From an uncultured delta proteobacterium (GTDB lineage: Bacteria; Myxococcota; Myxococcia; Myxococcales; Anaeromyxobacteraceae), in assembly GCA_963737085.1 (NCBI GenBank), contig CAVTRR010000005.1:173409-237408 (forward strand): a stretch of DNA of 64,000 bases, in the 5' to 3' direction. The position numbers were made by a program, and so were the translations under genes. Below the pieces are notes generated by a model. It saw only the letters and a list, made by a program, of their open reading frames with translations, did no database searches and was not told the origin of the DNA. The number at the start of each line of letters is the position of its first letter. Within the stretch, counting starts at the first letter, position 1. Shown piece by piece: positions 27,272-52,345 of this stretch.

Positions 27272-28690
27272 CTACTCGCTCCCCGCCGCGACGGCCGCGC
27301 GCCGCCACTCCTCGAGGCGGCGCACCTGCTCGGCGAACGTCACCTCTCCGCCCGCGGCCATCTCGGCGCCGGCCACGGCGAGGCGCTCGCCCGAGTCGAG
27401 CTCCTCCGCGATGCGCGGCGCCGCCTCGCGCGTGATCCGGTGGACGACGATCACCATCCACGCGAGCGAGGCGAGGGAGAGGGCGAAGAGGAACATGAAG
27501 GTGGTGGTGGGGAGCCTGGTCCGCTGCGCCAGCGCGCCGAACAGGATCGGCATGACGAACCCGCCCAGCCCGCCGATGACGCCCACGAGCCCGCCGACCG
27601 CGCCGACGCGGTCCGGGAAGTAGTGCGGGATGTGCTTGTAGACGGCGGCCTTTCCAATCCCCATCGCGAGCCCCAGCACGAACACGAGGGCGGTGAAGAG
27701 CGCCGGGCCGATGCGCAGGGAGAGGTGCATCGTGCTCCCGCCCGCGGCGTACTTCGCCGGCACGTTGAAGGCGAGCTGCACGTCCGGGAACATGAGCACG
27801 AAGGAGGTGACGACGCAGGTGCCGAGCACCCCGTACATCACGGTGCGCGCGCCGAAGCGGTCGGAGAGCCAGCCGCCCGGGGCCCGGACGATCCCGGAGG
27901 GGAAGACGAAGAGCGCCGTGAGGAGCGCCGCCGTCCGGAGGTCGAACCCGTAGACGTCCATGTAGTACTTGGGCAGCCAGAGCGAGAGGGCGACGTAGCC
28001 GCCGAAGACCAGGAAGTAGTAGAGGCCGAAGCGCCACACGCGGACCTGGCGCAGCGGCGCCAGCATCCGGCGGAGCGACGTCCTCTTCCGGTGCGCGTGA
28101 TCCGTGTACGTGCACGCCCAGTAGAGGGCGGCCGAGGCCAGCACGGCGAGGGCGTAGACGAACGGGACGAAGCGCCAGCCTCCGGGCACGAAGGCGACGC
28201 CGCCCGCCGGGACGACGGTCATGAGCGCCGGCGCGAGGAGCTTCGTCACCGAGGCCCCGGTGTTGCCGGCGCCGAAGATGCCGAGCGCCGTGCCCTGCAG
28301 CCGCGGCGGGAACCAGGCGGAGGTGTAGGCGATCCCGATCGCGAAGGACGTCCCCGACAGGCCGATGAAGAGGCCGAGCACGAGGTACTGCCAGTAGCGG
28401 TCCGCGGCGGTGAGGAGGAGGAGCGGCACGGCGGTGAAGGCGAGGAGGGCGGTGAAGAGGGGGCGCCCGCCCCACCAGTCGGTGGCCATGCCCACCGGGA
28501 GGCGGAGGACCGAGCCGGTCAGCACCGGGAGCGCCACCAGCAGCGCGAACTCGGTGTCGCCGAGCGACAGCTCGCGGCGGATCTGGAGCCCGACGATCGC
28601 GAACACCACCCACACCGCGAACATCACGGTGAAGGCGAAGGTGTTCATGGCGAGGACCGAGTTCCGCTTCCAGGTCTCCGAACGCTCCAT
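27272..28690 (-). CDS. narK: Nitrate/nitrite porter, NarK1-like
   Basis: LPVLTGSVLRLP, GLSGTSFAIGIAYTSAWFP, GTALGIFGAGNTG, GGWLSDRFGAR, GIGKAAVYKHIP, GGLGGF. Confidence 0.9.
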   Translation of the reverse strand: MERSETWKRNSVLAMNTFAFTVMFAVWVVFAIVGLQIRRELSLGDTEFALLVALPVLTGSVLRLPVGMATDWWGGRPLFTALLAFTAVPLLLLTAADRYWQYLVLGLFIGLSGTSFAIGIAYTSAWFPPRLQGTALGIFGAGNTGASVTKLLAPALMTVVPAGGVAFVPGGWRFVPFVYALAVLASAALYWACTYTDHAHRKRTSLRRMLAPLRQVRVWRFGLYYFLVFGGYVALSLWLPKYYMDVYGFDLRTAALLTALFVFPSGIVRAPGGWLSDRFGARTVMYGVLGTCVVTSFVLMFPDVQLAFNVPAKYAAGGSTMHLSLRIGPALFTALVFVLGLAMGIGKAAVYKHIPHYFPDRVGAVGGLVGVIGGLGGFVMPILFGALAQRTRLPTTTFMFLFALSLASLAWMVIVVHRITREAAPRIAEELDSGERLAVAGAEMAAGGEVTFAEQVRRLEEWRRAAVAAGSE

Positions 28691-28714
28691 GGCACGCTCC
28701 GCCGGGACCGCGGG

Positions 28715-30784
28715 TCAGCAGGGCATCTCGGCCTTGCGGCGCGAGTAGAACCACCAGGTGACGGCGAGGCAGGACACGTAGACGGCGATGAAGCCGAGGA
28801 ACGCCGCCGCCGGGCTGCCGGTGGACTTCATCGAGACGCCGAACGCGCGCGGGATGAAGAAGGCGCCGTAGGCGGCGATGGCGGAGCTGAAGCCGAGCAC
28901 CGCGGCCGCCTCCTTGGCGGCGTCCTTCTTGCCCTGCTCGCGCGCGGCGGCGCCGCGCCCCTCCGCGAGCCGCTCGTGGTGGGTCGAGAAGATCACCGGG
29001 ATCATGCGGAACGTGGAGCCGTTCCCGACGCCGGAGGTCGCGAAGAGGAGGAGGAACATGGCGAGGAAGCCGGGGAAGCTCCCGCCCGCGCCGCCCTCGG
29101 GGAGGAAGGCCAGCACGCCGCCCGCCGCCGCCGCCATGGCGACGAAGTTCCAGAAGGTGACGCGCGCGCCCCCCAGCTTGTCGGAGAGCCAGCCGCCCAC
29201 CGGGCGCACGAGGGCGCCCACGAGCGGGCCGAGGAACGCGTAGCGGATGGGATCGATGCCGGCGAACTGTGTCTTGATGAGGAGCGGCAGCCCGGCCGAG
29301 TAGCCGATGAAGGAGCCGAAGGTGCCGACGTACAGCCAGCACATGATCCAGTTGTGCTTGCGGCGGAAGACCACCGCCTGCTCGCGGAACGAAGCCTTCG
29401 CGCTCGCGATGTCGTTCATGCCGAGCCAGGCGGCGGCCGTCGCCGCGAGGACGAACGGCACCCAGACGAACCCGGCGTTCTGCAGCCAGAGCAGCTCGCC
29501 CGTCTTCGCCACCGTCTGCGGGCCGCCGCCGAGGCCGCGGAACACGCCGGCGGTGATGACCAGCGGCACGAGGAACTGCATGCCGGAGACGCCGAGGTTC
29601 CCGAGGCCGGCGTTGAGGCCGAGCGCCGTGCCCTTCCTCGCCTTGGGGAAGAAGAAGCTGATGTTGGCCATGCTGGAGGCGAAGTTCCCGCCACCGAGGC
29701 CGCACAGGAGGGCGAGCACGAGCATGGTGCCGTAGGACGTGGTCGGATCCTGCACCGCGAACCCCATGCCGAGCGCGGGGAGCACGAGCGAGGCGGTGGA
29801 GATCACGGTCCACATCCGCCCGCCGAAGATCGGCACCATGAAGGAGTAGAAGATGCGCAGCGTCGCGCCGGACAGGCCGGGGAGCGCGGCGAGCCAGAAG
29901 AGCTGATCGGTGCTGTACGGGAAGCCGATGGCGGGGAGCCGCACCACCACCACGCTCCACACCATCCAGACCGCGAAGGAGAGGAAGAGGGAGGGGATCG
30001 AGATCCAGAGGTTCCGCGTCGCGATGGCGCTGCCGGCCGACTCCCAGAACGCGCGGTCCTCGGGGTTCCACGCGGTGAGGACGCGGCCCTCGCCGCCGGC
30101 GGCGGGCGCCTCCGCCGCGGTGCGGTCGCGGTTCCACACCACCACCTGGAACGGCCGCCACAGGTAGCCGAGCGGCACCGTCAGGGCGTGGACGAGGCGC
30201 GAGAAGGGCAGGAGCGCGAGCAGGACGAACGCGCTCACGGCGTGGAACTTCACGAGCGTGGGGAGCACGCCGGCGAGCTCGACGCGGGGGGCGAGCGCCA
30301 CGAGCGAGCCGAGCCAGGGGGCCGCGGTGTGGAGGAACCAGACCGATCCCCAGCGCAGGCTGAGGCCGATCCAGGTCCCGGTCGCGACCTGCGCGAGGAG
30401 GAGGGCGAGCACGAGCCAGTCCAGCCGCGTCGTGACGACGCGCAGGCGCGGGCTCAGCGCGCGCCGGACGAGGAGGAGCGCCACCGAGAAGGTGGCCCAG
30501 AGGCCGAGGGCGATGCCGGCGATCTCGACCGCCACGAGGCGGCGCGGGTCCGCCACCAGGGCCCCCCACGCGCCGGGCGCGACCGCGGCGACGAGGTGCG
30601 CGAAGAGGATGGCCAGGATGGCGTAGTGCCACGGCACCGAGCCCCAGAAGAGCGCCTTCTTCTCGAGGAACTCCGAGGAGCGGGTGCCGAGCGTCGTGGG
30701 GTAGCGGCGCCGGGCGGCGATGCCGACGCCCGCCACGGCGAAGGCCGCGTAGGGGAAGACGCCGAAGAGGAAGAGCTCGTTCAT
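28715..30784 (-). CDS. narI: Fusion of nitrate reductase gamma subunit (NarI) and a NarK2-type nitrate/nitrite transporter
   Basis: First ~225 aa NarI with four haem-ligand His (PWHY, FAHL, KFHA, LVHA) ending RPFQVVVWN; then in frame WNPEDRAFW, RNLWISIPSL, GGGNFASSMANISFFFP, ATSGVGNGSTF. Confidence 0.88.
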   Translation of the reverse strand: MNELFLFGVFPYAAFAVAGVGIAARRRYPTTLGTRSSEFLEKKALFWGSVPWHYAILAILFAHLVAAVAPGAWGALVADPRRLVAVEIAGIALGLWATFSVALLLVRRALSPRLRVVTTRLDWLVLALLLAQVATGTWIGLSLRWGSVWFLHTAAPWLGSLVALAPRVELAGVLPTLVKFHAVSAFVLLALLPFSRLVHALTVPLGYLWRPFQVVVWNRDRTAAEAPAAGGEGRVLTAWNPEDRAFWESAGSAIATRNLWISIPSLFLSFAVWMVWSVVVVRLPAIGFPYSTDQLFWLAALPGLSGATLRIFYSFMVPIFGGRMWTVISTASLVLPALGMGFAVQDPTTSYGTMLVLALLCGLGGGNFASSMANISFFFPKARKGTALGLNAGLGNLGVSGMQFLVPLVITAGVFRGLGGGPQTVAKTGELLWLQNAGFVWVPFVLAATAAAWLGMNDIASAKASFREQAVVFRRKHNWIMCWLYVGTFGSFIGYSAGLPLLIKTQFAGIDPIRYAFLGPLVGALVRPVGGWLSDKLGGARVTFWNFVAMAAAAGGVLAFLPEGGAGGSFPGFLAMFLLLFATSGVGNGSTFRMIPVIFSTHHERLAEGRGAAAREQGKKDAAKEAAAVLGFSSAIAAYGAFFIPRAFGVSMKSTGSPAAAFLGFIAVYVSCLAVTWWFYSRRKAEMPC

Positions 30785-31329
30785 GGGCAGGCCTCCGCCG
30801 CGCGCGCCGGGACCTCGGCGCGCGGCTCGATCGTCTCGACCGCCGCCGCGACGGCGTCGGCCCAGGGGTGCCGCGCCTCCTCGAGGGCGGCCAGCATCTT
30901 CCTCAACGCGGGGGCGAGCCCGTCGGCGAGCAGGTCGTCCCGCACGTCCGCCGGGATCGGCGCCGCGGCGAGGCGCAGCACCTCCGAGACGTGGTCCGCC
31001 AGCTCGACGCCCTCGGCGAGCCCCGCCTCGCGCCGGAGCTCCCGCAGCCCGGAGAGGAGGAGGGAGCGCTCCCGGCTCGCGCCGAAGAGCTGATCGCCGA
31101 CGTACGGGCTCGCCACCGGCGCGAGGTCGAAGGCCGAGGTGTAGGCCTCCTCGAGCGCGGCGGCGCCCGCGGCGCGCGCCCACGCGGCGAACCGCGCGAG
31201 CCGCTCGGCGGCGGCGGGGCGCTCGGCCGCGAGCTCGACGGCGCACTCCGCCGCCGTCACGGCGAGCCCCGGCGCCGGATAGGCGAGCAGGTCGGAGAGG
31301 CGCCAGAGCGTGTCCTGGGAGACCGTCAT
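30781..31329 (-). CDS. narJ: Nitrate reductase molybdenum cofactor chaperone
   Basis: LSDLLAYP, LEEAYTSAFD, SPYVG, ELADH; lies between narH and narI with 4-nt overlaps. Confidence 0.85.
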   Translation of the reverse strand: MTVSQDTLWRLSDLLAYPAPGLAVTAAECAVELAAERPAAAERLARFAAWARAAGAAALEEAYTSAFDLAPVASPYVGDQLFGASRERSLLLSGLRELRREAGLAEGVELADHVSEVLRLAAAPIPADVRDDLLADGLAPALRKMLAALEEARHPWADAVAAAVETIEPRAEVPARAAEACP

Positions 31330-32774
31330 GGCAGCGCCCCCACGGCGTGGGCGGTGGCGACGTCGAACGCCTCGCCGCGCCCGGCGGGCGGCAGCACCAC
31401 CCGCTCCTCGAGCGTCGCGAAGGTGGTGAGCCGGTGCAGCTCGGCCGCCTCGGTCCGCCCGAAGCGCGCGGCGGCGAAGGCCGCCTCGACCTCCGCGGCC
31501 TCCACGTCGCCCACCGTCTCGGCGCGCCGCCACAGCCGCAGCGCGACCAGCTTGCGGAGCGCGGCGGCCACCGGCGCCTCGTCGCCGGCGGCGAAGAGGT
31601 TCGCGAGGTAGGCGAGGGGCAGGCGGCCGCGCTCGCCGCTCGTGAAGAGCCCCTCCACCGTCTTCGCGGTGCCGTTCGCCTTCTCGGCGAAGAGGGGCAG
31701 GAGCGGCGGCACGTAGAAGACGTTCGGGAGCGTCCGCCACTCGGGGTGGAGCGGCAGCGCCATCTCCCAGCGCTTCACGAAGGTGAAGGTGGGCGACCGC
31801 CGCGCCGCCTCGATCACGCCGGGGGCGAGGCCCGAGCGCCGCGCCGCCGCCTGCACCTCGGGATCGGCAGGGTCGAGCACGAGCTCGCGCTGGGCGGCGA
31901 CGAGCTCCTTCTCGGGCCGGCGCGCCACCTCGGCGATCCGGTCGGCGTCGTAGAGCAGCACGCCCTGGAAGCGGATGCGCCCCGGGCACGCGGCGAAGCA
32001 GGCCGGCGCCTCCCCCGACTCGATGCGCGGGTAGCAGCCGATGCACTTCTCCGACCGCCCCTCCTTCCAGTTGTAGAAGACCTTCTTGTACGGGCAGGAG
32101 GAGACGCACATCCGCCAGCCGCGGCACTTCTCGGGGTTCGACAGCACGAGCCCGTCCTCGCCGCGCTTGTAGATGGCGCCGGAGGGGCAGGACGCCACGC
32201 AGGCGGCGTTCGTGCAGTGGTTGCAGGTGCGGGGGAGGTGGAAGAAGGCGAGCCGCTCCACGCCGAAGAGCTGCCCGCGCTCCTCGGGCGTGAGCGCCTC
32301 GAGGTTCGGGTCCTTCGCGGCGTACTCCTTCGAGCCCGACAGGTCGTCGTCCCAGTTCGGGCCGGCGCGCGGGATCATGTCCTTCCCGGTGACGAGCGAC
32401 ACGGGGCGCGCCGTCGGCTGCACGTCCGACTCCGCCGCCTCGAAGAGGTCGCGGTACCGGTACGTCCACGGCTCGTAGTAGTCGTCGAGCGTGGGCAGGT
32501 TCGGGTTGTGGAAGATCGCCCCGAGGGCGCCGGCCCGCCCGCCGGCCTTCAGCCCGAGCGCCCCGGCGTCCACATCCCATCCGCCCTTCCAGCGGTCCTG
32601 GTCCTCCCAGTTGCGCGGGAAGCCGGTGCCGGGCCGGGTCTCGACGTTGTTCCACCACATGTACTCGGCGCCCGGCCGGTCGGTCCACACGTTCTTGCAG
32701 ACGACGCTGCACGTGTGGCAGCCGAGGCACTTGTCGAGGTGGAAGACCGAGGCGAGCTGCGCGCGCACGTCCAT
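31326..32774 (-). CDS. narH: Respiratory nitrate reductase beta subunit
   Basis: DKCLGCHTCSVVCK, WNNVET, CNHCTNAACVASCP, CRGWRMCVSSCPYKK, CIGCYPR, PLHPEWRTLP. Confidence 0.95.
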   Translation of the reverse strand: MDVRAQLASVFHLDKCLGCHTCSVVCKNVWTDRPGAEYMWWNNVETRPGTGFPRNWEDQDRWKGGWDVDAGALGLKAGGRAGALGAIFHNPNLPTLDDYYEPWTYRYRDLFEAAESDVQPTARPVSLVTGKDMIPRAGPNWDDDLSGSKEYAAKDPNLEALTPEERGQLFGVERLAFFHLPRTCNHCTNAACVASCPSGAIYKRGEDGLVLSNPEKCRGWRMCVSSCPYKKVFYNWKEGRSEKCIGCYPRIESGEAPACFAACPGRIRFQGVLLYDADRIAEVARRPEKELVAAQRELVLDPADPEVQAAARRSGLAPGVIEAARRSPTFTFVKRWEMALPLHPEWRTLPNVFYVPPLLPLFAEKANGTAKTVEGLFTSGERGRLPLAYLANLFAAGDEAPVAAALRKLVALRLWRRAETVGDVEAAEVEAAFAAARFGRTEAAELHRLTTFATLEERVVLPPAGRGEAFDVATAHAVGALP

Positions 32775-32785
32775 GGCGGGGCCTC

Positions 32786-35700
32786 CTAGAAGCGCGGCTC
32801 GCCCTCGAGCTTCCGGACGAGGACGTAGGTGTCGCGGTTGTTGCCGGTCGGGCCCCAGTAGTTGAAGCCGTAGGTGAACTGGCCGTAGCCGCCGAGCATG
32901 AGGGTCGGCTTCAGCCGCACCCGCGCGAGGCTGTTGTGGCTGCCGCCGCGCTTGCCGCCGCGCGAGGGGGCGCGCGGTACGGAGATGGTCCGCTCAGGCG
33001 CGTGGTACTGGATCGCCATCCCGGTCGGCACGCGCGCGCTCACCACCGCCTTCGTGACGACGACGCCGTGGTCGTTCACCACCTCGACCCAGTCGTCGTC
33101 GGCGAGGCCGAGCCGCGCCGCGTCCTTCTCGCTCACCCAGAGCGGGTGGAGCCCGCGGGAGAGCGTGAGCATCCGCAGGTTGTCCCCGTACGTGGAGTGG
33201 ATGTTCCACTTGCCGTGCGGCGTGAGGTAGTTGAGCCGGATCGAGCGCCCGTCGTTCCGCGTCTCGACGAGGTCCTGCACGAAGGACGGATCGCAGCGCG
33301 GCTTGTAGGTCGGCAGCGCCTCGCCGTGGGCGAGGTAGCCGGGGTGGTCGAGGTAGAGGTGCTGGCGGCCGGTGAGGGTCCGCCACGGCACGAGCCGCTC
33401 CACGTTGACGGCGTAGGCGGTGTAGGTGCGCCCCTCGTCGATGATGCCGGTCCAGCACGGCGAGTTCAGGATGCGCCGGGGCTGGCGCCCGAGCGCGTCG
33501 AAGTCCATGCGCACGTCGCGGCTCTTCTCGGCGAGGTCGGCGAGCGGGAGCCCGACCTTCTTCTCCTCCGCCTGGAAGGCGCGGTACGCCATCTCGCCGT
33601 TGGTCTCGGGCGCGAGGCGGAGGACGAGGTTCGCCGCCTCGACCGCCGTCGCGACCGACGGGTAGGTCTTCCCGCCCCAGGTCCGCGACGGGCCCTTCGC
33701 CGCCAGCTCGTCCCAGGCGTCCTCGATCGGCCAGGAGAGGCCGTGCGCGCCGATGCCGCCCGCGCGCGCGGCGGGACCGAAGGAGGTGAACCGCTCGTGC
33801 AGGTGGGCGTAGTCGCGCTCGACGAGGGCGAGCCCGGGCATCGTCTTCCCGGGGACCGCGGCGCACTCGCCCTTGCGCCAGTCGCGCAGCTCCGGCTCCG
33901 CCATCTCGCCGGGCGTGTCGTGCTGGATCGGGACCGTGACGAGGTCCTTCACCGGCTCCGGCAGGTGCCGGCGCGAGAGCTCGGTCACCTTGCGCGCGAG
34001 CGCCTCGAACGCGTCCCAGTCGCTCTTCGACTCCCAGCACGGCGGCACCGCCGCCTGCAGCGGGTGGATGAAGGTGTGCAGGTCGGTGGTGTTGAGGTCG
34101 TCCTTCTCGTACCAGGTGGCCGCCGGCAGCACGAGGTCGGAGTAGAGCGCGCTCGTGTCCATCCGGAAGTTGAGGTCGACGACGAGATCGAGCTTTCCCT
34201 TCGGCGCCTGCTCGCGCCAGACGACCTCGGAGACCGACTCCTTCGCGGTCTCCTTCGCGATCGAGGCGTCGTCGGTGCCGAGGTAGTGGCGCAGGAAGTA
34301 CTCCTGCCCCTTCGCCGAGGAGGAGAGGGCGTTGCCGCGCCAGATGAGGAAGACGCGCGGCCAGTTCTCGGGCGCGTCCGGGTCCTCGACCGCGAGCTTG
34401 AGCTTCCCGTCCTGGAGCTGCCGCACGACGGAGGAGAGGACCTCCGCGTCGCCGGCCGCGCCGGCGGCGCGCGCCTCCTTCACGACGTCGAGCGGGTTCC
34501 GGTCGAACTGCGGGAAGAAGGGGAGCCAGCCCCGGCGCACCGCCCGGATCTGGTGGTCGATCGTGTGCCCGTCGACGAACGGGCCGTCCGCCGGCGTCGG
34601 GTTGAGGCGCCGCTCGTCGCTCGTCCGCTCGTAGCGCCACTGATCGGTGTGGACGTAGTGGAAGGAGGGCGTGTTCTGGAAGCGCGGCGGGCGCCCCCAG
34701 TCGAGCGCGCCGGCGAGCGTGGCCCACGGCGCGACGGGCGCGAGCTTCTCCTGCCCCACGTAGTGGTTCAGGCCGCCGCCGTTCTTCCCGACGCACCCGG
34801 TGACGAGGAGCGCGGTGATCGCGGCGCGGTAGGTGAGGTCGGCGTGGTACCAGTGGTTCACGCCGGCGCCGATGAGGATGGAGCACTTGCCGCCGGTCTT
34901 CTCGGCGGTGGTCGCCCACTCGTGCGCGAACCGCACCACGTCGGCGCGGTCGACGCCGGTGAACCGCTCCTGCCAGGCCGGCGTGTACGGGATCTCGGCG
35001 TCGTCGTCGCCCGACGGCCAGGCGCCGGGCAGGCCGCGCGAGACCCCGAACTGCGCGAGGAGCAGGTCGTAGATGGTCGTGACGGTGGCCGGGCCGGAGG
35101 CCGTCTCGATCACCTTCACCGGCACGCCGCGGCGGAGCGTCCGCCCCTCGGCGAAGTCGGAGAAGGTCACCTCGCGCACGCCGTCGTGGCCGCCGAGCAG
35201 CGAGAGCGCCGGCTCGAGCGGCTCGCCGTCGAGGCCGTCCTTCATCTGCAGGTTCCACTCGCCCTTCTTCGACTGCCAGCGGAAGCCGAGCGAGCCGAGC
35301 GGCATGCGCGGCGCGCCGGAGCGGCCGTCCCAGACGACGTACTTGAACCCGGCGTTCTCCACCGCGGCGGTCCGCGCGAGCTCGGAGGCCTTGAGGAGCC
35401 GCCCGGGCGCGAGGGCGCCGTCCCGCTCCTCCAGCCGCACGAGGAAGGGCGCGTCGGTGTAGCGGGAGAGGTAGTCGGTGAAGGCGGGCGCCTTCCCCGC
35501 CGCGTGGAAGTCCCGGAGGATGACGTGCACCGCCGCCATCCAGAACGCGCCGTCCTGGCCGGAGTGGACCGGGATCCACCAGTCGCCGTGCTTCGACGTG
35601 ACGCTCAGGTCGGGCGAGAGGACGACGAGCTTCGCCCCGTCGTGCCGGGCCTCGGAGAGGAAGTGGGCGGAGGGGGTGCGGGTGACGTCGGGGTTCGACC

Positions 35701-36915: not shown

Positions 36916-36998
36916 GGCTTCCCCCTGGCGCCGCGGGCGAGCGGGCCCGAGGCGGCCACGCTCCGGCGTGAAGCACCGGATTGCGGACATTGATGGGA

Positions 36999-37014: not shown

Positions 37015-37067
37015 CGCCCCGAGGAGAACGACCCTGAGCGTGTGCAACCTATCCGGGCGCGCCGGAG

Positions 37068-41275: not shown

Positions 41276-41277
41276 GG

Positions 41278-41688: not shown

Positions 41689-43227
<1,539 letters not shown>

Positions 43228-43257
43228 TCAGGCAATTCATATGTTCTGACCGATGAG

Positions 43258-43272
43258 ATAAGGTGAGCTTAT
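43258..43272. promoter_or_regulatory. LysR (CbbR) recognition site
   Basis: Perfect ATAAG-N5-CTTAT palindrome with a T-N11-A core, overlapping the cbbR ATG in the divergent cbbL/cbbR spacer. Confidence 0.7.
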
Positions 43273-44197
43273 GTCAGGCCTGAGGGACGTCACGCTGCGC
43301 CAGCTCCGGATCTTCGAGAGCGCCTCCCGCACGCAGTCCTTCTCGCGCACCTCGGAGGCGGTGCACCTCACGCAGCCGGCGGTGTCGATGCAGATGAAGC
43401 AGCTCGAGGACCTCGCCGGGCTGCCGCTCTTCGAGCGGATCGGGCGCCGCCTCCACCTCACGCAGGCCGGGGAGGAGCTGGCCCGCCACGCCCGGGAGGT
43501 GCTCCGCGCCGTGGAGCAGGCCGACGAGGCGCTCGCCGCGCTGCGCGGCCTGCAGGGCGGCCGCATCCGGGTGGCGGTGACGAGCACGGCGAAGTACTTC
43601 GCGCCGAAGCTCATCGCCCTCTTCGCGAAGCGTCACCCCGAGGTGGTCGTGCGCCTCTCGGTGGCGAACCGCGAGGTCGTCATCGGGGCGCTCGCCGCGA
43701 ACGAGGTGGACCTCGCCATCATGGGGAAGCCGCCCGACGCCCTCGAGACGGTCGCCTCGGAGTTCGCCGAGCACCCCTTCGTGGTCGTGGCGGCGCCCGA
43801 CCATCCGCTCGCGCGCCGGCGCTCCGTCCCGCTCTCGGCGTTCGGCGGCGAGACGTTCCTCGTGCGCGAGCCGGGGTCCGGCACGCGGGGGGCGATGGAG
43901 CGGTTCTTCGCCGGGCACGGGATCGAGGTGCGCGTCGGGATGACCCTCGAGAGCAACGAGACGATCAAGCAGGCGGTGATGGCGGGGATGGGGCTCTCCT
44001 TCATCTCCCGCCACACCGTCGGGCTGGAGCTCTCCGTGGGCGAGCTCGCCGTCGTGCACGCGCCCGGGCTGCCCGTGGTGCGCGCCTGGAACGTCGTCCG
44101 CCTCGCCGCGAAGCGGCCCTCGCCGGCGGCGCACGCGTTCGAGGCGTTCGTGCTCGAGGAGGGGAAGGCGTTCCTGAGGAACTGGCCGCGCCGCTGA
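43271..44197 (+). CDS. cbbR: LysR-type regulator CbbR
   Basis: [60 protein letters not shown]; divergent from cbbL. Confidence 0.93.
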
Positions 44198-44225
44198 GGG
44201 CCAGGCGATCTCGAAGGGGGCGGTG

Positions 44226-44239
44226 TTGACGCCGCGCAA
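44226..44239. promoter_or_regulatory. Fnr/Crp-like box upstream of the DsrP/NrfD-like gene
   Basis: TTGAC-GCCG-CGCAA, with the same variant right half-site as the nar box. Confidence 0.45.
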
Positions 44240-44312
44240 GGCGGGCGCTCGCCCCGCGCCCAAGGTCGGATCTCCGCCCCGGATCGTCACGGAGCGAAGG
44301 GAGGTCCGGGCC

Positions 44313-45556
44313 GTGGAGCCGAGCCGCTTCGCCAGGGAGTGCCTGCGCCTCGTGCTGAGCGGCGGCCGCGCCTACCGCGCCTGGGTGGCCTCCCTCCTCT
44401 GCGCCGTGGCGGTGGGGATGGCGGCCTGGGTCCACCAGGCGCGGACCGGCCTCATCGCCACGTCCATGCGCGACGAGGTCTCCTGGGGCTTCTACGTGGG
44501 CAACTTCACGTTCCTCGTCGGCGTCGCGGCCGCGGCGGTGATGCTCGTCATCCCCGCCTACGTCTACCACTGGAAGCCGATCAAGGAGGTGGTGGTCCTC
44601 GGCGAGCTCCTCGCCATCTCCGCGATCGTGATGTGCCTCCTCTTCATCGTCGCCGACATGGGCCGGCCGGACCGCTTCCTCCACCTCGTCCCGCTGCTCG
44701 GCACGCCCAACTGGCCGCGGTCGCTGCTCACCTGGGACGCGCTCGTCCTGAACCTCTATCTCGCGCTCAACGCGGGCGTGGTGCTGCACGTGCTCCACCG
44801 CGCGTTCCACGGCCGCGAGCCCGACCGGCGCTTCTTCGTGCCGCTCGTGCTCCTCTCCATCCCCCTCGCCATCGGCATCCACACCGTCACCGCGTTCCTG
44901 TTCAGCGGGATGGTGGCGCGGCCGTACTGGAACGCCTCGATCCTCGCCCCGCGCTTCCTCGCCTCGGCGTTCGCCTCCGGCCCCGCCGTCATGATCGTGC
45001 TGTTCCAGATCCTGCGCCGGACCATCGCCTTCCCGATCCGGGACGAGGCGCTCTGGAAGATCGCCGAGCTGATGGCGTACGCGATGGCCGTGAACCTGTT
45101 CCTCCTCGGCGCCGAGCTCTTCAAGGAGACCTACTCCGCCACCGAGCACCTGCGCTTCACCGAGCACGTCTGGACCGGGCTCGGCCCCCACCGCGCCCTC
45201 GTGCCGTTCGCCTGGACCGGGCTCGGCGTGCAGCCTCAGTCGCGTTCCTCCTGCTCCTCGTGCCGCGCACGCGCCGCCGCTTCGCCACCCTGAACGTCGG
45301 GTGCGTGCTCGTGTGGATCGGGGTCTACCTCGAGAAGGGCTTCCTGCTCGTGATCGGCGGGCTGACCCCGGACGCCCTCGGCGTGATCCACGACTACCGC
45401 CCGAGCGCGACCGAGCTCGGCGTGGCGGCCGGCGTCTTCGGGGCGGGGTTCCTCGTCTTCACGGCGCTCGTGAAGATCGCGGTCCCCATCCTCTACGGAA
45501 CGTTCCGCGCGGAGACGGTGACGCCCGCCGCCCTCACGCGGAGTGTGGTCGGGTAG
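44313..45556 (+). pseudogene. DsrP/NrfD (polysulfide reductase) family membrane protein with a frameshift near 45225-45240
   Basis: Frame 3: SWGFYVGNFTFLVG, DMGRPDR, SLLTWD, IHTVTAFL, APRFLASAF. The C-terminal TMs continue in frame 2 (VAFLLLLVP...LEKG...YRPS) to TAG 45556. May be an assembly error. Confidence 0.7.
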
Positions 45557-45648
45557 GCGCCGACCTGCCACCCCGCGGCGGCCGCCGCGTCGAGGGACGC
45601 CTTGTCCCCGCCGGGCCTCACCGGGCATCATACCCCGGGGAGGAAGCG

Positions 45649-47715
45649 GTGGCGTTCGATCGCGCGACAAGGTGGGCGCTCATGGCCTTCGCGCTCGCGG
45701 GGGCGCTGGGGGCATTCTTCGTGACCGGCGCGGCGAGGCTCGAGCGGCTCGAGCGGCGCGGCCGCGCGGAGCACGCCGCGCGGCGCGCCGGCTCCGCGCT
45801 CGAGTCGAGCCTCGAGCGGTCGCTCTCGGCGGCCTGGGCCCTCGCCGCCGCCGTGCGCCGCGGGGACCTCGACGACTTCGACCGGCTCGCGGCGGAGATG
45901 ATCTCGATCTACGGGGGCATCCGCGGCCTTCAGCTCGCGCCGCACGGCGTGGTGCGGCGCATCCACCCGCTCGCCGGGAACGAGGCCGCCATCGGGCACG
46001 ACCTCTTCGCCGACCCGGCCCGACGGGAGGAGGCGGAGGCCACCCGCGCCTCGCGCAGGCTGACGCTCTCCGGCCCTCTCGCGCTCCTGCAGGGCGGCGT
46101 GGGGCTGGTGGGGCGCTACCCGGTCTTCATCCCCCGTCCCGAGGGCGGCGAGGAGTTCTGGGGCTTCACGGTCGTCCTCCTCTCCCTCGACGCCGTGCTC
46201 GCGGAGAGCGCGCTGCCGGAGCTCGCGCGGGAGGGATACGCCTTCGCGCTCTCCGCGGCGGACGCGGCGGGCGTCGGCGCCGCCGTCGCGAGCGGCGGCG
46301 CGCTCGCCGCCGATCCGGTGCGCATCGCGGTGAGGCTCCCGAACCGCGAGTGGACGCTCGCCGTCGCGCCCGTCGCCGGCTGGCGCGATCCCGCGCGCGA
46401 GGCGATCCGGTACCTCGTCGCGGCGCTCCTCGCCGCTGCGTGCGCCGCCGTCACGTACGCGCTCGCGCGGCGGCCGCAGCGGCTGCAAGCGCTCGTCGCC
46501 GAGCGCACCGCCGCGCTGGAGCGCGCCTACGCGCAGCTCGAGATCGACGCAGCCGAGCGGTCGCGGGCGGAGGAGCAGCTTCGCCAGACGCAGAAGATGG
46601 AGGCCATCGGGCAGCTCGCGGGCGGGGTCGCCCACGACTTCAACAACCTCCTCACCGGGATCCTCGCGTGCGCCGCCGAGCTCCGGGAGGAGGCGCCGCG
46701 CGGGAGCCCCGCGGAGGAGGCGGCGCGCACGATCGAGCAGGCGGCGCGCCGGGCCGCCGAGCTGACGCGGCAGCTCCTCGGCTTCGCGCGGCGGGGAAAG
46801 CTCTGCAGCGCGCCGGTGGACGTCCACGCCGTCGCCCTCGAGGTGACGCGGCTCCTCGGGCGGACCGTCGACTCGCGCATCTCGATCCAGACGAGGCTCG
46901 ACGCGCCGCGCGCGACCGTGCTCGGCGACTCCGGCCAGATCCAGCAGGCCATCCTGAACCTCGCCGTGAACGCCCGCGACGCGATGCCCCGCGGCGGAGT
47001 CCTGACCCTCGCGACGGCGCTCGTGGAGAAGGCCGCCGCCGATCTCGGCGCGCACCCCGGGGCGCGCGCCGGTCCCCACGTGGCGCTGTCGGTCTCCGAC
47101 ACCGGGAAGGGCATCCCCGGCGAGCTCATGGACCGGGTCTTCGAGCCGTTCTTCACGACCAAGGAGCCCGGGCGCGGGACCGGGCTCGGCCTCGCCACCG
47201 TCTACGGCATCGCCGTGAACCACGGCGGCTTGGTCGAGGTCGTGAACGAGCCCGAGGGCGGCGCACGGTTCACGCTCTCCCTTCCGCTCCACGAAGGCCT
47301 CGTCGCCGCGGAGGGGACGGCGGCCCCGGTGGTCCTGGCCTGGGGTGGCCGCGTGCTGGTCGTGGACGACGAGGCGGTCGTGCGCGCGGGGACGGAGCGC
47401 GCCCTCGTGCGGCTCGGCTGCGAGGTCGCCGTGTGCGACGGGGGCGAGGCCGCGGTGCGCCACCTCGAGGCGAACCGGGTCGATCTCGCCATCGTGGACC
47501 TCGGCATGCCCGGCCTCGACGGGATCCAGACCTTCCGCGCCCTGCGCGCCGTCGATCCGGGGCTCCCCGTGGTGATCGCGTCGGGGTACGGCCGCGACGG
47601 CCGCGCGCAGGAGGCGCTCGACGCGGGCGCCCTCGCGTTCCTGCAGAAGCCGTGGACGCTCGAGCAGCTCGCCGGCGCGGTGACGGTCGCCCTCGCGGCG
47701 CGCCGCGCTGCGTGA
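45649..47715 (+). CDS. Hybrid sensor histidine kinase (TM-CHASE-TM-HisKA-HATPase-REC)
   Basis: CHASE-like LQLAPHGVV, TLSGPLALLQGG; H-box GGVAHDFNNLL; NLAVNARDAM, DTGKGI, FFTTK, GTGLGL; receiver VDDE...DLGMP...KP. Confidence 0.9.
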   Translation: MAFDRATRWALMAFALAGALGAFFVTGAARLERLERRGRAEHAARRAGSALESSLERSLSAAWALAAAVRRGDLDDFDRLAAEMISIYGGIRGLQLAPHGVVRRIHPLAGNEAAIGHDLFADPARREEAEATRASRRLTLSGPLALLQGGVGLVGRYPVFIPRPEGGEEFWGFTVVLLSLDAVLAESALPELAREGYAFALSAADAAGVGAAVASGGALAADPVRIAVRLPNREWTLAVAPVAGWRDPAREAIRYLVAALLAAACAAVTYALARRPQRLQALVAERTAALERAYAQLEIDAAERSRAEEQLRQTQKMEAIGQLAGGVAHDFNNLLTGILACAAELREEAPRGSPAEEAARTIEQAARRAAELTRQLLGFARRGKLCSAPVDVHAVALEVTRLLGRTVDSRISIQTRLDAPRATVLGDSGQIQQAILNLAVNARDAMPRGGVLTLATALVEKAAADLGAHPGARAGPHVALSVSDTGKGIPGELMDRVFEPFFTTKEPGRGTGLGLATVYGIAVNHGGLVEVVNEPEGGARFTLSLPLHEGLVAAEGTAAPVVLAWGGRVLVVDDEAVVRAGTERALVRLGCEVAVCDGGEAAVRHLEANRVDLAIVDLGMPGLDGIQTFRALRAVDPGLPVVIASGYGRDGRAQEALDAGALAFLQKPWTLEQLAGAVTVALAARRAA

Positions 47716-47780
47716 GCGCGCGGGCGCGGCGCCGCCCGGCGGCGCATCTTGTGGGCGGCACCGCGCGAAGGAGGCCGCCC

Positions 47781-48779
47781 GTGACCCGTCGAGAGTTCCT
47801 CCACCTGGCGCTCGGCGCGACGCTCGTCCCGGCGAGCGGATGCGGCGGCGGCGCGGGGATGGCCGCGGGGGCGGCGCCCGGGGGCGTCGCCCGCCGGCGG
47901 CTCGGCCGCACGGGCGCCCAGGTGTCCCTCGTCGGGCTGGGCGGGTGGCACATGGGGATCCAGCGCGAGGAGCGCGAGAGCGTCGACCTCGTCCGCGCCG
48001 CGGTCGACGGCGGGATCGCCTTCCTCGACAACTGCTGGGACTACAACGACGGGGAGAGCGAGCGCCGGATGGGCAAGGCGCTGCGCGACGGCTACCGCGA
48101 CCGGGTGTTCCTCATGTCCAAGCTCGACGGGCGCACGCGGGAGAAGGCCGCGCGACAGATCGACGAGTCGCTCGCGCGGCTCGGGACCGACCGCATCGAT
48201 CTCATGCAGATCCACGAGGTGATCCGCGAGAGCGATCCCGGCCGCTGCTTCGCCGAGGGCGGCGCGGTCGAGGCGCTCGTCGAGGCGAGGCGAGCGGGGA
48301 AGATCCGCTTCATCGGCTTCACCGGCCACAAGTCGCCGCGCTGGCACCTCGCCATGCTCGCCGAGGCGGACCGGCACGGCTTCGCCTTCGACACGGTGCA
48401 GATGCCGCTCAACGTCCTCGACGCGCACTACGACAGCTTCGAGCGGAGCGTGCTCCCCGTCCTCCTCGAGCGGGACATCGGCGTCATCGGCATGAAGCCG
48501 ATGGCCGACGGCCGCATCGTCCAGGCGGGCATCGCCACGCCGGAGGAGTGCCTCCGCTACGCGCTCGGCCTCCCCACGAGCGTCGTGGTCACCGGCTGCG
48601 ACGGGATGGACCGCGTCGAGCAGGCGCTCCGCGTCGCCCGCGGGTTCGAGCCCCTCTCGAGAGAGGACGCCGCCGCGCTCCTCGCGCGGACCTCCGCCGC
48701 CGGCCACGACGGCGGGGCCGAGCTCTACAAGACGACGGAGCGGTACGACGGGACGACGCAGAACCCCTCCTGGCTCTGA
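47781..48779 (+). CDS. Aldo/keto reductase with a twin-arginine signal
   Basis: TRREFL Tat motif; LGRTG-x-x-VS-x-x-GLGG, DNCWDY, FLMSK, DLMQIHE, GKIRFIGFTGH, GVIGMKP. Confidence 0.88.
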   Translation: MTRREFLHLALGATLVPASGCGGGAGMAAGAAPGGVARRRLGRTGAQVSLVGLGGWHMGIQREERESVDLVRAAVDGGIAFLDNCWDYNDGESERRMGKALRDGYRDRVFLMSKLDGRTREKAARQIDESLARLGTDRIDLMQIHEVIRESDPGRCFAEGGAVEALVEARRAGKIRFIGFTGHKSPRWHLAMLAEADRHGFAFDTVQMPLNVLDAHYDSFERSVLPVLLERDIGVIGMKPMADGRIVQAGIATPEECLRYALGLPTSVVVTGCDGMDRVEQALRVARGFEPLSREDAAALLARTSAAGHDGGAELYKTTERYDGTTQNPSWL

Positions 48780-48915
48780 GGGCCGCGCGGAGCGCGCCCG
48801 CCCGCCTCTTCGCCCGGCGGACGCCCGCCCGGCCTTCACCCCGCGCGAGGGACGCGCTCGGCGGGACGCATGTGCACCTTGCTGTCGCGGGCGGGACGCC
48901 CGACGAGGAGGGTAC

Positions 48916-49452
48916 ATGCGGAAGCTTTGGATGGCCGGCGTGATGGCGGCGGCGGCGCTCTTCGCGCAGACCGCGCGGGCGGCGGACGACGCGAAGCAGG
49001 AGCGGCGAGAGGCGTACGACGCGACGCGCACCGAGATGAAGCAGGAGGGGCGCGAGGCGAAGGGCGAGGTGCAGCAGCAGGCCAACGAGGGGCAACGCGA
49101 GCTGCAGAAGACGGAGCGCGAGGCGCAGCACGACATGGCGGAGCGGAAGAACGACGCCCGCACGGCCGCCGCGAAGGGCGACAAGAAGCACCCGCTCTTC
49201 GAGGGCAAGAACAACTTCGACGTCGAGGGCAGGATCCAGAAGGTCTCGATGAACAGCATCACGGTCGCCCGCGACGACATGCCGGCGGCGACGCTCAACG
49301 TCTCGAAGGACACCAAGATCGAGCTCGACGGCGAGCAGGTCTCGATGAAGCAGCTGAAGCAGGGGCAGGAGGTGAAGGCCTCCTTCAACCTCAAGGGCGA
49401 GAAGCCCGAGGCGGTCGAGATCAAGGCGGAGAAGCTGAACAGCCAGAAGTAG
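48916..49452 (+). CDS. Secreted hypothetical protein (charged helical N-part, small beta-barrel C-part)
   Basis: GAGGAGG SD, Sec signal ending ARA, E/K/Q-rich helix, C-terminal VEGRI...ITV...TKI...LKQGQEVKASF. Confidence 0.8.
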   Translation: MRKLWMAGVMAAAALFAQTARAADDAKQERREAYDATRTEMKQEGREAKGEVQQQANEGQRELQKTEREAQHDMAERKNDARTAAAKGDKKHPLFEGKNNFDVEGRIQKVSMNSITVARDDMPAATLNVSKDTKIELDGEQVSMKQLKQGQEVKASFNLKGEKPEAVEIKAEKLNSQK

Positions 49453-49471
49453 CAGGGGGAGTGGGGGGACG

Positions 49472-49502
49472 CGCCGGCCGCGGGGGCTTCCCGCGGCCGG
49501 CG
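49472..49502. terminator. Perfect 13-bp hairpin between convergent genes
   Basis: CGCCGGCCGCGGG-GGCTT-CCCGCGGCCGGCG between the 49452 stop and the pntB stop. Confidence 0.55.
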
Positions 49503-49543
49503 TGCCGTTCCCGGCCGACGGCCGCGCGCCGCCGCCCCCGCGG

Positions 49544-50932
49544 CTACGCCTGCTTGACCTCGTGCACGAGCGCCGCGAGCGACTGCTTCGCGTCGCCGAA
49601 GAGCATCGCGGTGTTCGGGCGGTAGAAGAGCTCGTTCTCGATGCCGGCGAAGCCCGGGCTCATCGAGCGCTTCAGCACGATCACCTGCTTCGCCTGGTCC
49701 GCGTTCAGGATGGGCATGCCGTAGATGGGCGACGCCGGATCGGTGCGGGCGGCCGGGTTCACGACGTCGTTCGCGCCGACGACCAGCGCCACGTCGGCGT
49801 TCTTGAACTCGTCGTTCACCTCGTCCATCTCCTTCAGCCGGTCGTACGGGATGTCCGCCTCGGCGAGCAGCACGTTCATGTGCCCGGGCATCCGCCCCGC
49901 CACGGGGTGGATGGCGTAGAGCACGGTGCCGCCGTTCCGCTCGACGAGCTGGGCCAGCTCGCGCACCTGGTGCTGCGCCTGGGCGACCGCCATGCCGTAG
50001 CCCGGCACCACGATGACGAGCCGCGCCCAGGCGAGCTGGATGGCGGCGTCCTGGGGGGTGATGGCGCGGACGGTGAGCCCCGAGGCGCTCCTCGCCGACG
50101 CCGCCGGCGCCGCCCCGAAGGCGCCGAAGAGCACGTTGTGGAAGGAGCGGTTCATCGCCCGGCTCATGACGATCGAGAGGATGAAGCCCGACGCGCCGTC
50201 GAGCGCGCCGGCGATGATGAGGACGTCGTTGCCGATGGCGAACCCGGTCGCCGCGGAGGCCAGCCCCGCGTACGAGTTGAGGAGCGAGATGACGACCGGC
50301 ATGTCCGCGCCGCCGATGGGGAGGACGAGCGACACCCCGAAGGCGAGGGCGAGGCCCACCATGGCGTAGAAGGCCGCGGGGTGCGCGGGCTCGACCACGA
50401 GCCAGGCGAAGAGCGCCGCCGCCGCGCCGAAGATCCCGAGGGAGACGAGGTTCTGGCCGCGGAAGGTCACCGGCCGCGAGGGGAGCAGCTCCTGCAGCTT
50501 CCCGAAGGCCATGAAGGAGCCGGTGATGGTGAGCGCCCCGAAGAGCACCTCGAACCCGAGCGCCGCCATCTCGCCGCGCGGGACCCGTGCGCCGTCCCCG
50601 AGGGTCCGGTACTCCGCCACGCCGACGAGGGTCGCCGCGATCGCCCCGAACATGTGCGAGATGGCGATGCGCTGGGGCATCGCCGTCATGGGCACGTACA
50701 CGCCGAGCGGGTAGCCGATCGCCGCCCCGAGGGCGAGGCCCGCCAGGATCCAGTCGTAGCGGACGATCTCGTGGTGGACGAGCGTGCCCACGATGGCGAC
50801 GAGCATGCCGAGGGCGGCGAGCTGCATGCCGCGGCGCGCGCGGTCCGGGACGGTGAGGCTCCGCAGCCCCAGGATGAAGAGCACGGAGGCCGCGAGGTAG
50901 GCCGCCTCGATGAAGACGACGCGCGGGCTCAT
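49544..50932 (-). CDS. pntB: NAD(P) transhydrogenase beta subunit
   Basis: MTAMPQ, IGGADMPVVISLLNSYAG, VPGYGMAVAQAQH, AIHPVAGRMPGHMNVLLAEA, GANDVVNPAA. Confidence 0.95.
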   Translation of the reverse strand: MSPRVVFIEAAYLAASVLFILGLRSLTVPDRARRGMQLAALGMLVAIVGTLVHHEIVRYDWILAGLALGAAIGYPLGVYVPMTAMPQRIAISHMFGAIAATLVGVAEYRTLGDGARVPRGEMAALGFEVLFGALTITGSFMAFGKLQELLPSRPVTFRGQNLVSLGIFGAAAALFAWLVVEPAHPAAFYAMVGLALAFGVSLVLPIGGADMPVVISLLNSYAGLASAATGFAIGNDVLIIAGALDGASGFILSIVMSRAMNRSFHNVLFGAFGAAPAASARSASGLTVRAITPQDAAIQLAWARLVIVVPGYGMAVAQAQHQVRELAQLVERNGGTVLYAIHPVAGRMPGHMNVLLAEADIPYDRLKEMDEVNDEFKNADVALVVGANDVVNPAARTDPASPIYGMPILNADQAKQVIVLKRSMSPGFAGIENELFYRPNTAMLFGDAKQSLAALVHEVKQA

Positions 50933-50945
50933 GGCGCCCCCCGCG

Positions 50946-51254
50946 TCACTTCCCGTCGCCCCGCGGCCGCCCGCCGCGCCTGAACATCTTCAGCATGCGG
51001 TCGGTGATGATGAAGCCGCCCACCACGTTGATCGTCGCCGAGGTGACCGCCACGAAGCCGAGGACGGTCGGGAGGAGCCCGCGGTCGGCCCCCGCGAGCA
51101 CGAGGGAGCCGACGAGGGAGATCGCGCTGATGGCGTTCGTCGCCGACATGAGCGGAGTGTGCAGGAGCGCGGGGACCCGGGTGATCGTGAAGAGGCCCAC
51201 GAACGCCGCGAGCACGAACACGTAGAGCTGGAGGAGCATGAGCGAGTCGGTCAC
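50946..51254 (-). CDS. pntA: NAD(P) transhydrogenase alpha subunit part 2 (membrane)
   Basis: VPALLHTPLMSATNAIS, INVVGGFIITDRMLKMF. Confidence 0.92.
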   Translation of the reverse strand: MTDSLMLLQLYVFVLAAFVGLFTITRVPALLHTPLMSATNAISAISLVGSLVLAGADRGLLPTVLGFVAVTSATINVVGGFIITDRMLKMFRRGGRPRGDGK

Positions 51255-52345
51255 GGCCTGACCTTCCCGTCGTGGACGACCAGCATCGCCTGGGCGATCT
51301 CGTCGCCGAGGTCGAGCGCGCCGTCCTTCGCGAGGTGCTGGATGAGCGTCTGGACGTTGCGGCCGTAGAGCTGGCTCGCGTGGAGCGGGACCATCGAGGG
51401 GACGTCGACGGGGCCGAGGATGGTCACCCCTGCCTCGACGACGGTCTCGCCCGGCCGCGTGAGCTCGCAGTTGCCGCCCGCCTCGGCGGCGAGGTCGACG
51501 ATCACCGAGCCGCGGCGCATCGACCTGACCATCGCCGCGGTGAGGAGCCGCGGCGCCGGCTTCCCGGGCACCGCCGCGGTGGTCACGACGAGGTCCATGT
51601 CCTTCACGTGGGCCGCGATGGCCGCGAGCACGCGCTCCTGCTCGGTCGCGGCGAGCTCCTTCGCGTACCCGCCGGCACCCTCCGCGGCGACGGCGGGGAC
51701 CTCGACGAAGGACGCGCCCAGCGACTGGACCTGCTCCTTCACCGCGGGCCGGACGTCCAGGGCGGAGACGATCGCGCCGAGCCGGCGCGCCGTGGCGATC
51801 GCCTGGAGCCCGGCCACCCCGGCGCCGACGACGAACGCCTTCGCCGGTGCGAGGGTGCCCGCGGCGGTCGTCATCATCGGGAGGATGCGCGGGAGCGCGT
51901 CCGCGCCGAGCAGCACCGCCTTGAACCCGGCGAGGGTCGCCTGCGAGGAGAGCGCGTCCATCGCCTGGGCCCGGGTGGTGCGCGGCACCCGCTCCATGGC
52001 GAGGGCGTCGACGCCGCGCGCGGCGAGGCGCGCGAGGAGGGCCCCGGCGCGCCCGGAGGCGAGCAGGCCGACGACGACCGCGCCGGGCGGCACGGCCTCC
52101 GCCTCGCGCGCGCCCGGCCCGCGGACCGTCGCCACGACGCGCGCGCCCTCGAGCGCCGCCGCCGCACCGTCGACGACCGAGGCGCCCGCCGCCGCGTAGG
52201 CGGGGTCCGCGAAGCCCGCCTCCTCGCCCGCGCCGCGCTCGACGCGCACCTCGTGCCCCTGCCGCGTGAGCCGCGCCACGCCGTCGGGGACGAGCGCGAC
52301 CCGCCGCTCCCCGGCGGCGGTCTCCTTCAGCACGGCGATGCGCAT
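51251..52345 (-). CDS. pntA: NAD(P) transhydrogenase alpha subunit part 1 (NAD-binding dI)
   Basis: KETAAGERRVALVP, RTTRAQAMDALSSQ, GAGVAGLQAI, GGYAK, DLAAEAGGNC. Confidence 0.93.
   Translation of the reverse strand: MRIAVLKETAAGERRVALVPDGVARLTRQGHEVRVERGAGEEAGFADPAYAAAGASVVDGAAAALEGARVVATVRGPGAREAEAVPPGAVVVGLLASGRAGALLARLAARGVDALAMERVPRTTRAQAMDALSSQATLAGFKAVLLGADALPRILPMMTTAAGTLAPAKAFVVGAGVAGLQAIATARRLGAIVSALDVRPAVKEQVQSLGASFVEVPAVAAEGAGGYAKELAATEQERVLAAIAAHVKDMDLVVTTAAVPGKPAPRLLTAAMVRSMRRGSVIVDLAAEAGGNCELTRPGETVVEAGVTILGPVDVPSMVPLHASQLYGRNVQTLIQHLAKDGALDLGDEIAQAMLVVHDGKVRP

Follow-up and report, generated by a model that had tools for sequence, protein, structure and literature searches.

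The closest described counterparts of the genes treated here are two well-known kinds of operon. In the form IC (red-type) ribulose bisphosphate carboxylase/oxygenase (RuBisCO) operons of Cupriavidus necator H16 and Rhodobacter sphaeroides (cbbI), cbbR is divergent to cbbL-cbbS-cbbX, which are followed by the genes for fructose-1,6-bisphosphatase (FBPase), phosphoribulokinase (PRK) and a class II aldolase (FBA). Respiratory nitrate reductases of the E. coli and Paracoccus type comprise NarG, NarH, NarJ and NarI, together with NarK-family transporters and an upstream FNR-type box. H2-oxidizing denitrifiers such as C. necator and Paracoccus combine nitrate respiration with a form IC RuBisCO, and electron flow from H2 via menaquinone to Nar, with the Calvin cycle (Calvin–Benson–Bassham, CBB) used for carbon, would be a conventional scheme, familiar from other form IC bacteria. 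Here, a 64-kb window (the whole stretch of DNA that was analysed; 74% GC) on a 267-kb contig (C5) of an Anaeromyxobacter genome was examined, in which a cbb operon ends 447 nt before a nar operon on the same (minus) strand. An earlier note on this DNA, which had put the gap at about 450 nt, proposed that cbb, nar, a membrane protein gene of the NrfD type and the transhydrogenase genes pntA1A2B could form an anoxic CO2-fixation module powered by nitrate respiration, and regarded this as an unusual setting for a red-type RuBisCO; the denitrifiers named above speak against the second point. With a probability of roughly 0.8, we favour the reading that a relocatable cbb cassette landed in an ancestral spacer between pnt and nar, that the two operons are separate units with no functional island and that autotrophy is a possibility at the level of the genome. 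None of the parts is of an unfamiliar kind, and the novelty is limited to one more lineage that hosts a mobile red-type cbb cassette and to an insertion next to nar that is peculiar to this lineage.

The source genome (G000) is a 5.13 Mb assembly in 12 contigs with a completeness of 99.97% and 74% GC. Genes were called by third-position GC (at 74% GC nearly all frames are open) and named using Pfam and NCBIfam; the genes that the earlier note had named were recovered at or near the places where it had put them. Whole-genome placement assigned G000 to a genus of 37 genomes within a family (Anaeromyxobacteraceae) of 92 genomes; the family genomes compared with it include G022, G030, G032, G035 and G065. 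The best matches of NarG are from Anaeromyxobacteraceae at 85–92% identity [92% for the metagenome-assembled genome (MAG) MFD00905.bin.2.16 and 85% for SMAG_U25], and identities to named Anaeromyxobacter species are 62–68%. The host chromosome is assigned to Anaeromyxobacter.

The adjacency of cbb and nar was found in none of the other genomes examined. Form I CbbL is encoded in 16 of the 92 family genomes (78–93% identity) and NarG in 40. Flanks of up to 32 kb around cbbL were fetched from ten cbb-positive family genomes (long flanks for G035, G027, G028, G026, G038 and G047), and nar was beside cbb in none of the ten. In the other genomes with both (G027, G028, G035, G042, G044 and G065) cbb and nar are on different contigs. 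Across bacteria, cbb genes were absent within ±10 kb of narG at all 80 narG loci inspected, and nar, pnt or an NrfD-like gene was likewise absent from 80 other form IC cbb loci. The adjacency is unique to G000 within the family (92 genomes) and among the unrelated cbb or nar loci (about 160 in all), with no counterpart in the loci examined; the earlier note had itself named such uniqueness as one half of what would tell against it. The presence of cbb and that of nar are statistically independent in the family: eight genomes have both, with narG in 8/16 cbb-positive and 32/76 cbb-negative genomes (Fisher p = 0.59; odds ratio 1.1–1.4; p = 1.0 after dropping two degenerate matches). A literature search found no description of a cbb–nar linkage in Anaeromyxobacter.

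The closest nar-bearing relatives (G032, G022 and G035) suggest how the adjacency arose. In all three, the homologue of window positions 49,550–55,560 (pnt and the region upstream) is directly followed by that of 28,708–36,924, which runs from the gene for a c-type cytochrome at the head of the nar operon to narI::narK, a fusion gene; pntA1 is syntenic in these genomes, directly upstream of nar. In G022 the homologue of orf313 (window 47,874) is only 335 nt from the cytochrome c region (window 36,924), so that G000 has the stretch from ∼37,100 to 47,870 in addition. This G000-specific stretch of ∼11 kb contains cbbA–cbbL, cbbR, the NrfD-like gene and a CHASE-domain kinase gene. The ancestral layout of the sub-clade would have consisted of pntA1A2B, a short variable spacer and cytochrome c-narGHJ-narI::narK, and the ∼11 kb would have been inserted in the G000 lineage between orf313 and the nar promoter. 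The insert comprises a self-contained form IC cassette (NrfD-like gene, cbbR, control region and cbbL-S-X-F-P-A) plus the CHASE hybrid kinase.

The cassette of ∼8 kb (NrfD-like gene, cbbR and cbbLSXFPA) occupies other contexts in G035, G030 and G065. In G035 it is located on another contig and is homologous to window 37,363–45,538 with 87–89% nucleotide identity (88.8% for the cbb operon); the homology stops exactly at the stop codon of cbbA, and the next gene in G035 is convergent. The flanks of the G035 cassette map to G000 C9:215,324 and C9:215,439. As these positions are 115 bp apart, G000 has an empty site at the location used in G035. Relocation is evident from the different sites in four genomes together with the reciprocal empty sites. 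Because the chromosomal sites differ among species, the cassette is regarded as mobile within the family, where it would move or be exchanged; the circulation of a red-type cbb cassette inside Anaeromyxobacteraceae is clearly documented, with 16 of 92 genomes carrying it and sites that differ by species. A single clade of the CbbL tree, with 13 rows, holds 11 family sequences; its other two rows are MAGs labelled Proteobacteria/Gammaproteobacteria, and Povalibacter (Steroidobacteraceae, a gammaproteobacterium) forms the next branch outside it. The clade, regarded as specific to Anaeromyxobacteraceae, is nested among Pseudomonadota sequences, and G000, G035 and G030 group together with a support of 100. 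This pattern is consistent with an early gain of the gene from Pseudomonadota and with its later movement and loss within the family. The position of cbb beside nar would then be a historical accident of the landing site, and pnt would be tied to nar by ancestry and not to cbb.

Several points weigh against insertion of a mobile cassette. The borders of the insert showed no integrase or transposase gene, no tRNA and no flanking repeats, and the hallmarks of an integrative element (mobile genomic island), namely its genes, target, repeats and deviant composition, were lacking; the insert has 72.8% GC compared with 73–74% in the flanks, which gives no compositional signal. Without a species tree, insertion at this site is not strictly separable from loss in the relatives plus relocation. 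Many of the relatives are fragmented MAGs, and the absence of adjacency on short contigs is weaker evidence. The promoter assignments given below are motif-based only, and no terminator-like structure follows cbbA, so that transcription from cbb may run on into nar. That a chimeric contig joined cbb and nar is extremely improbable: the assembly is a draft in 12 contigs, but both junctions are unique, non-repetitive and present once in the genome, and on either side the 267-kb contig is collinear with homologous DNA in relatives.

The spacer between cbbA and the cytochrome c gene bears on regulation. Its proximal part aligns with G022, G032 and G035, and for 37080–37362 no further copy was found in the genome or in any locus fetched. 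The FNR/CRP-type box TTGCGCGAGATCAA in the spacer is the sole match to TTG-N6-ATCAA in the 64-kb window (0.05 expected by chance). Boxes aligned with it are TTGCGCTGGATCAA in G022, gTGATCCGGATCAA in G032 and the more degenerate TTGATCTGGCTCAC in G035, and the block downstream of the box is common to G000, G022 and G032 and weaker in G035. As the box and the downstream block align with those of the relatives, the insertion is placed upstream of a retained nar promoter. From the conserved box, the cytochrome c-nar operon is most likely driven from this FNR/CRP-type anaerobic promoter. The AT-rich region between cbbR and cbbL shares a core of ∼45 nt (CATCAGGCAATTCAnATGTTnTGACCGAT) with G035, which argues that the cassette carried a control region along with it; transcription of cbb most likely starts at a CbbR-controlled promoter of its own. 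Two independent transcription units, as predicted from the motifs, would be the simplest model.

A scan of 36,300–37,500 gave no terminator-like or sigma70-like site, and the spacer has no hairpin, T-tract terminator or unusual structure (RNA fold compared with shuffles, z = 0.77). These results, and the homology to G035 that ends at the cbbA stop codon ahead of a convergent gene, would suit a nascent coupling by read-through, in which an accidental insertion without a terminator would allow induction of cbb to raise the expression of nitrate reductase. We consider this coupling unlikely, as nar has a conserved promoter element of its own and the untranslated stretch of 447 nt could plausibly serve Rho as a substrate; C/G, an indicator of Rho sites, is mildly above 1 over the first 130 nt of the spacer, which is a weak signal.

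The module proposed in the earlier note, with cbb, nar, the NrfD-like protein and pnt selected and co-regulated for nitrate-powered anoxic CO2 fixation, is very improbable. The common strand and the 447-nt gap without a terminator-like site are what such a module would show, and the genome encodes a hydrogenase for H2 uptake as well as the remainder of the CBB cycle, but the adjacency is confined to G000, cbb and nar are not co-distributed across the 92 genomes, each operon has a separate, conserved control region, the NrfD-like gene is frameshifted and the linkage of pnt to nar is older than the insertion of cbb. A selected module would have meant a dedicated programme of nitrate-driven autotrophy in a group seen as organotrophs (metal and halo-respirers). 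Since the evidence opposes it at this locus, gene neighbourhood offers no basis here for inferring nitrate-driven autotrophy.

Features of the window between positions 27272 and 52345, with the matches on which their names rest.
Feature	Position	Strand	Match or remark
Second NarK-like transporter of the major facilitator superfamily (MFS)	27272–28690	−	MFS_1; TIGR00886, 205 bits, below cut-off
narI fused to NarK/NarU-type nitrate/nitrite transporter, 689 aa	28715–30784	−	PF02665 + MFS; TIGR00886
narJ	∼30781–31326	−	Start approximate; TIGR00684, 35.7 bits, 8e-9, below cut-off of 59; place between narH and narI
narH	31326–32774	−	Fer4_11 (PF13247), Nitr_red_bet_C (PF14711)
narG	32786–36406	−	TIGR01580, 1501 bits, cut-off 1084
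Monohaem c-type cytochrome, first gene of nar operon, 170 aa	36403–36915	−	Translation
Spacer between cbbA and cytochrome c, 447 nt	36916–37362	−	Distal part, junction DNA of G000 only; proximal ∼150–190 nt (to ∼37100), nar promoter region common to relatives
FNR/CRP-type box TTGCGCGAGATCAA	37068–37081	−	∼160 nt upstream of cytochrome c start
cbb operon (cbbL, cbbS, cbbX, cbbF, cbbP, cbbA)	37363–43188	−	Pfam, solved-structure matches, TIGR01521
cbbA (class II FBA)	37363–38403	−	TIGR01521, 564 bits, over cut-off
cbbP (PRK)	38425–39300	−	PF00485, 1e-72
cbbF (class I FBPase)	39291–40391	−	Pfam
cbbX	40388–41275	−	3SYL/3ZUH (CbbX), 1e-124 over 285 residues
cbbS	41278–41676	−	PF00101
cbbL	41689–43188	−	PF00016, PF02788; structure matches including 1BXN and 5NV3
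cbbR–cbbL divergent control region	43189–43270		47.6% GC within a 74% GC genome
cbbR (LysR-type regulator), divergent from cbbL	43271–44197	+	HTH_1, LysR_substrate (Pfam)
NrfD/PsrC-like membrane protein gene, frameshifted	44223–45556	+	PF03916, 1e-37
CHASE-domain hybrid histidine kinase/receiver	45853–47715	+	CHASE, HisKA, HATPase_c, Response_reg (Pfam); start uncertain, open frame reaches 45301
orf313 (313 aa)	47840–48779	+	No Pfam or NCBIfam match; right edge of ancestral spacer
DUF5666-like small exported protein	48916–49452	+	Weak PF18914 match; homologue at same place in G022
pntB	49544–50932	−	PF02233, 9e-179
pntA2 (alpha, four-transmembrane-helix part)	50946–51254	−	PF12769, 6e-33
pntA1 (transhydrogenase alpha, dI)	51251–52345	−	AlaDh_PNT_N (PF05222), AlaDh_PNT_C (PF01262)

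The RuBisCO of the window is assigned to form IC on the basis of both subunits, CbbX, PRK and a divergent CbbR, and the earlier description of it as red-type agrees with the structure matches, CbbX and the tree. The solved structures that best match CbbL, 1BXN and 5NV3 among them, rank above red-algal and green-type enzymes, and in the CbbL tree the G000 sequence is placed among Pseudomonadota form IC. CbbR is 90% identical to that of G035 and 83% identical to that of G030. The gene order is that of the C. necator H16 and R. sphaeroides cbbI operons, and the cbbR/cbbLSX core is present in 73 of the 80 other form IC loci. Unlike those two operons, the G000 operon lacks transketolase, phosphoglycolate phosphatase, glyceraldehyde-3-phosphate dehydrogenase, phosphoglycerate kinase and ribulose-phosphate epimerase (RPE) and has a myxobacterial host. 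A further difference is the NrfD-like gene adjoining cbbR, which was found in the Anaeromyxobacteraceae sub-clade only and at 0/80 other form IC loci.

As a separate observation on the tree, the CbbL sequences L094 (Proteobacteria bacterium OH_CBB_164) and L105 (Gammaproteobacteria bacterium palsa_1196) lie inside the Anaeromyxobacteraceae clade, L094 pairing with G010 with a support of 100. Either the two contigs come from Anaeromyxobacteraceae and were mis-binned or mislabelled, or the gene has moved by recent transfer.

The operon is minimal, with six genes and without cbbT, cbbZ, cbbG, cbbK and cbbE, and its distribution in the family is patchy (16/92). Both features could be expected if the cassette were not for autotrophic growth and instead provided a CO2-dependent electron sink or mixotrophic re-assimilation of CO2 in a versatile anaerobe or microaerophile; that purple non-sulfur bacteria use the CBB cycle as a redox sink is counted on the same side. 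This role is a real possibility, if less likely than not: all six cbb genes are intact and 77–94% conserved with respect to G035, the CbbX activase has been kept, and housekeeping transketolase and RPE together with the uptake hydrogenase would permit a full cycle.

Transketolase and RPE are encoded elsewhere in G000. The search for an electron-donor system that the earlier note had advised located a cluster for a Hyb-type periplasmic uptake [NiFe] hydrogenase (hybOABC and hyp; C4:129,907–141,771). The cluster encodes a small subunit with a twin-arginine translocation signal, a HybA-like iron–sulfur protein, a HybB (HybB/NrfD-like) membrane anchor, the large subunit, a protease and accessory genes; for the latter, the reading hypFCDE(A)B comes from the sequences themselves, without a family scan. 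The Hyb hydrogenase was present in 6/6 relatives tested, whether cbb-positive or not. For Sox, also suggested in that note as a donor system, matches to SoxB in G000 were sub-threshold only (56 bits compared with a cut-off of 550), and the large subunit of form I CO dehydrogenase (CoxL) gave no match in the genome. C. necator H16 and Paracoccus denitrificans resemble G000 in having an uptake [NiFe] hydrogenase, the CBB cycle and a membrane-bound nitrate reductase in one genome. They differ in that the G000 hydrogenase is of the Hyb type (HybA and a HybB/NrfD-like anchor) and that the system is known here from genes alone.

Because a hydrogenase with hyp genes, transketolase and RPE are encoded, the combination of H2, nitrate and the CBB cycle is genomically possible in G000, as a property of the genome and not of the locus. 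G000 could be a facultative autotroph with nitrate as one possible electron acceptor, and the metabolic part of the earlier proposal, nitrate-respiring CO2 fixation, is possible on this whole-genome scale. It is improbable that G000 is a facultative chemolithoautotroph which, by way of the acquired form IC cassette, grows on H2 and CO2 with nitrate or low O2, and that the chance insertion also brought partial read-through coupling from cbb to nar; if this were true, an operon fusion would have been caught at birth and autotrophy would be shown for the first time in a culturable myxobacterium. The near-complete genome with cassette, Hyb hydrogenase and Nar would make the question of autotrophy directly testable, provided that a culture exists. 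Anaeromyxobacteraceae are named in a 2026 preprint, which deals with Danish MAGs of Myxococcota, as one of the families whose CBB cycle is near-complete.

The nar genes are assigned to a respiratory nitrate reductase NarGHJI, with a weak match for NarJ. The earlier account of an operon running from cytochrome c through narGHJI to narK holds for its genes and is amended in three respects: the cytochrome has a gene of its own, the narI frame continues into a NarK-type transporter and there are two NarK-type units at the locus, the fused one and the second NarK-like gene. The cytochrome has a single haem motif (CLACH), a signal peptide and a C-terminal transmembrane anchor. No Pfam or NCBIfam family matched it; it is kept at 76–85% identity in G022, G032 and G035. 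Its stop codon overlaps the start of narG (ATGA). A cytochrome–NarG fusion, suggested by an open frame of 1409 aa, was rejected, as the cytochrome is read in a different frame, which stops at this overlap. NarG is 92% identical to that of G032.

In the NarI::NarK fusion, PF02665 covers residues 4–217 (182 bits; cut-off 22.9) and the MFS domain residues 266–603, and the TIGR00886 match (339 bits) is over its cut-off. The same two-domain architecture is present in more than 45 database proteins of ∼690 aa with 61–92% identity, including those of Anaeromyxobacter sp. Fw109-5 and A. oryzisoli, which the database names only NarK or NarI; a literature search found no description of a NarI–NarK fusion in Anaeromyxobacter. 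The locus shares its reductase genes, NarK-family transporters and upstream FNR-type box with the E. coli and Paracoccus type. It differs in the membrane-anchored monohaem cytochrome c gene translationally coupled to narG, in the fusion of NarI to a NarK-type transporter, as is typical of Anaeromyxobacter, and in the extra NarK-like gene. The latter is missing at the same position in G032, which has a DUF5666 paralogue there, and in G022, which has a gap of ∼570 nt; it is a second G000-specific gain at the nar locus. In G035, narG (C17:110352–113970, L187) is split in two frames, either by a frameshift or through an error of long-read assembly, and the genes of that MAG should be read cautiously.

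The earlier note had an NrfD-like gene and pnt following within 9 kb. Both are present; the NrfD-like gene extends to 45556 and is frameshifted, and pntA1A2B lies ∼9 kb beyond cbbL. Two 1-nt insertions near 45226–45238 alter the frame of the NrfD-like gene, which is intact in G035 (a 412-aa open reading frame, L171:7645–8883), G030 and G065. Before the frame change, the PF03916 match covers profile positions 3–246 of 313, and the product is 74% identical to a paralogue at C8:501059–502315 up to residue 350, after which it continues in another frame. The gene in G000 is probably a pseudogene, or else reflects an assembly error. No NrfC-like gene was found in the cassette, so that the intact NrfD and NrfC partner looked for in a quinol-interacting subunit were both lacking. 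An intact NrfD paralogue is encoded in a cytochrome c-NrfC-NrfD-cytochrome c module at C8:499,518–502,644 of G000. The NrfD-like gene is directly downstream of cbbR in G000, G035 and G030; in G065 its place is on the far side of cbbA, next to an NrfC-like gene.

The three pnt genes are assigned to a complete alpha1/alpha2/beta set of a proton-translocating PntAB. The CHASE hybrid kinase is missing from the G035 cassette and from the pnt–nar spacers of G022, G032 and G035, and it appears to be specific to G000 at this site and to lie inside the insert. The DUF5666-like gene belongs to the variable pnt–nar spacer and not to the insert. The cargo of this spacer differs in four genomes: ∼350 nt without genes in G032, DUF5666 and orf313 in G022, a binding protein and a chemoreceptor in G035, and the cbb cassette with the kinase in G000. 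The spacer (window 36916–49543 and the homologous spacers in L002, L187 and L188) looks like a local insertion hot spot.

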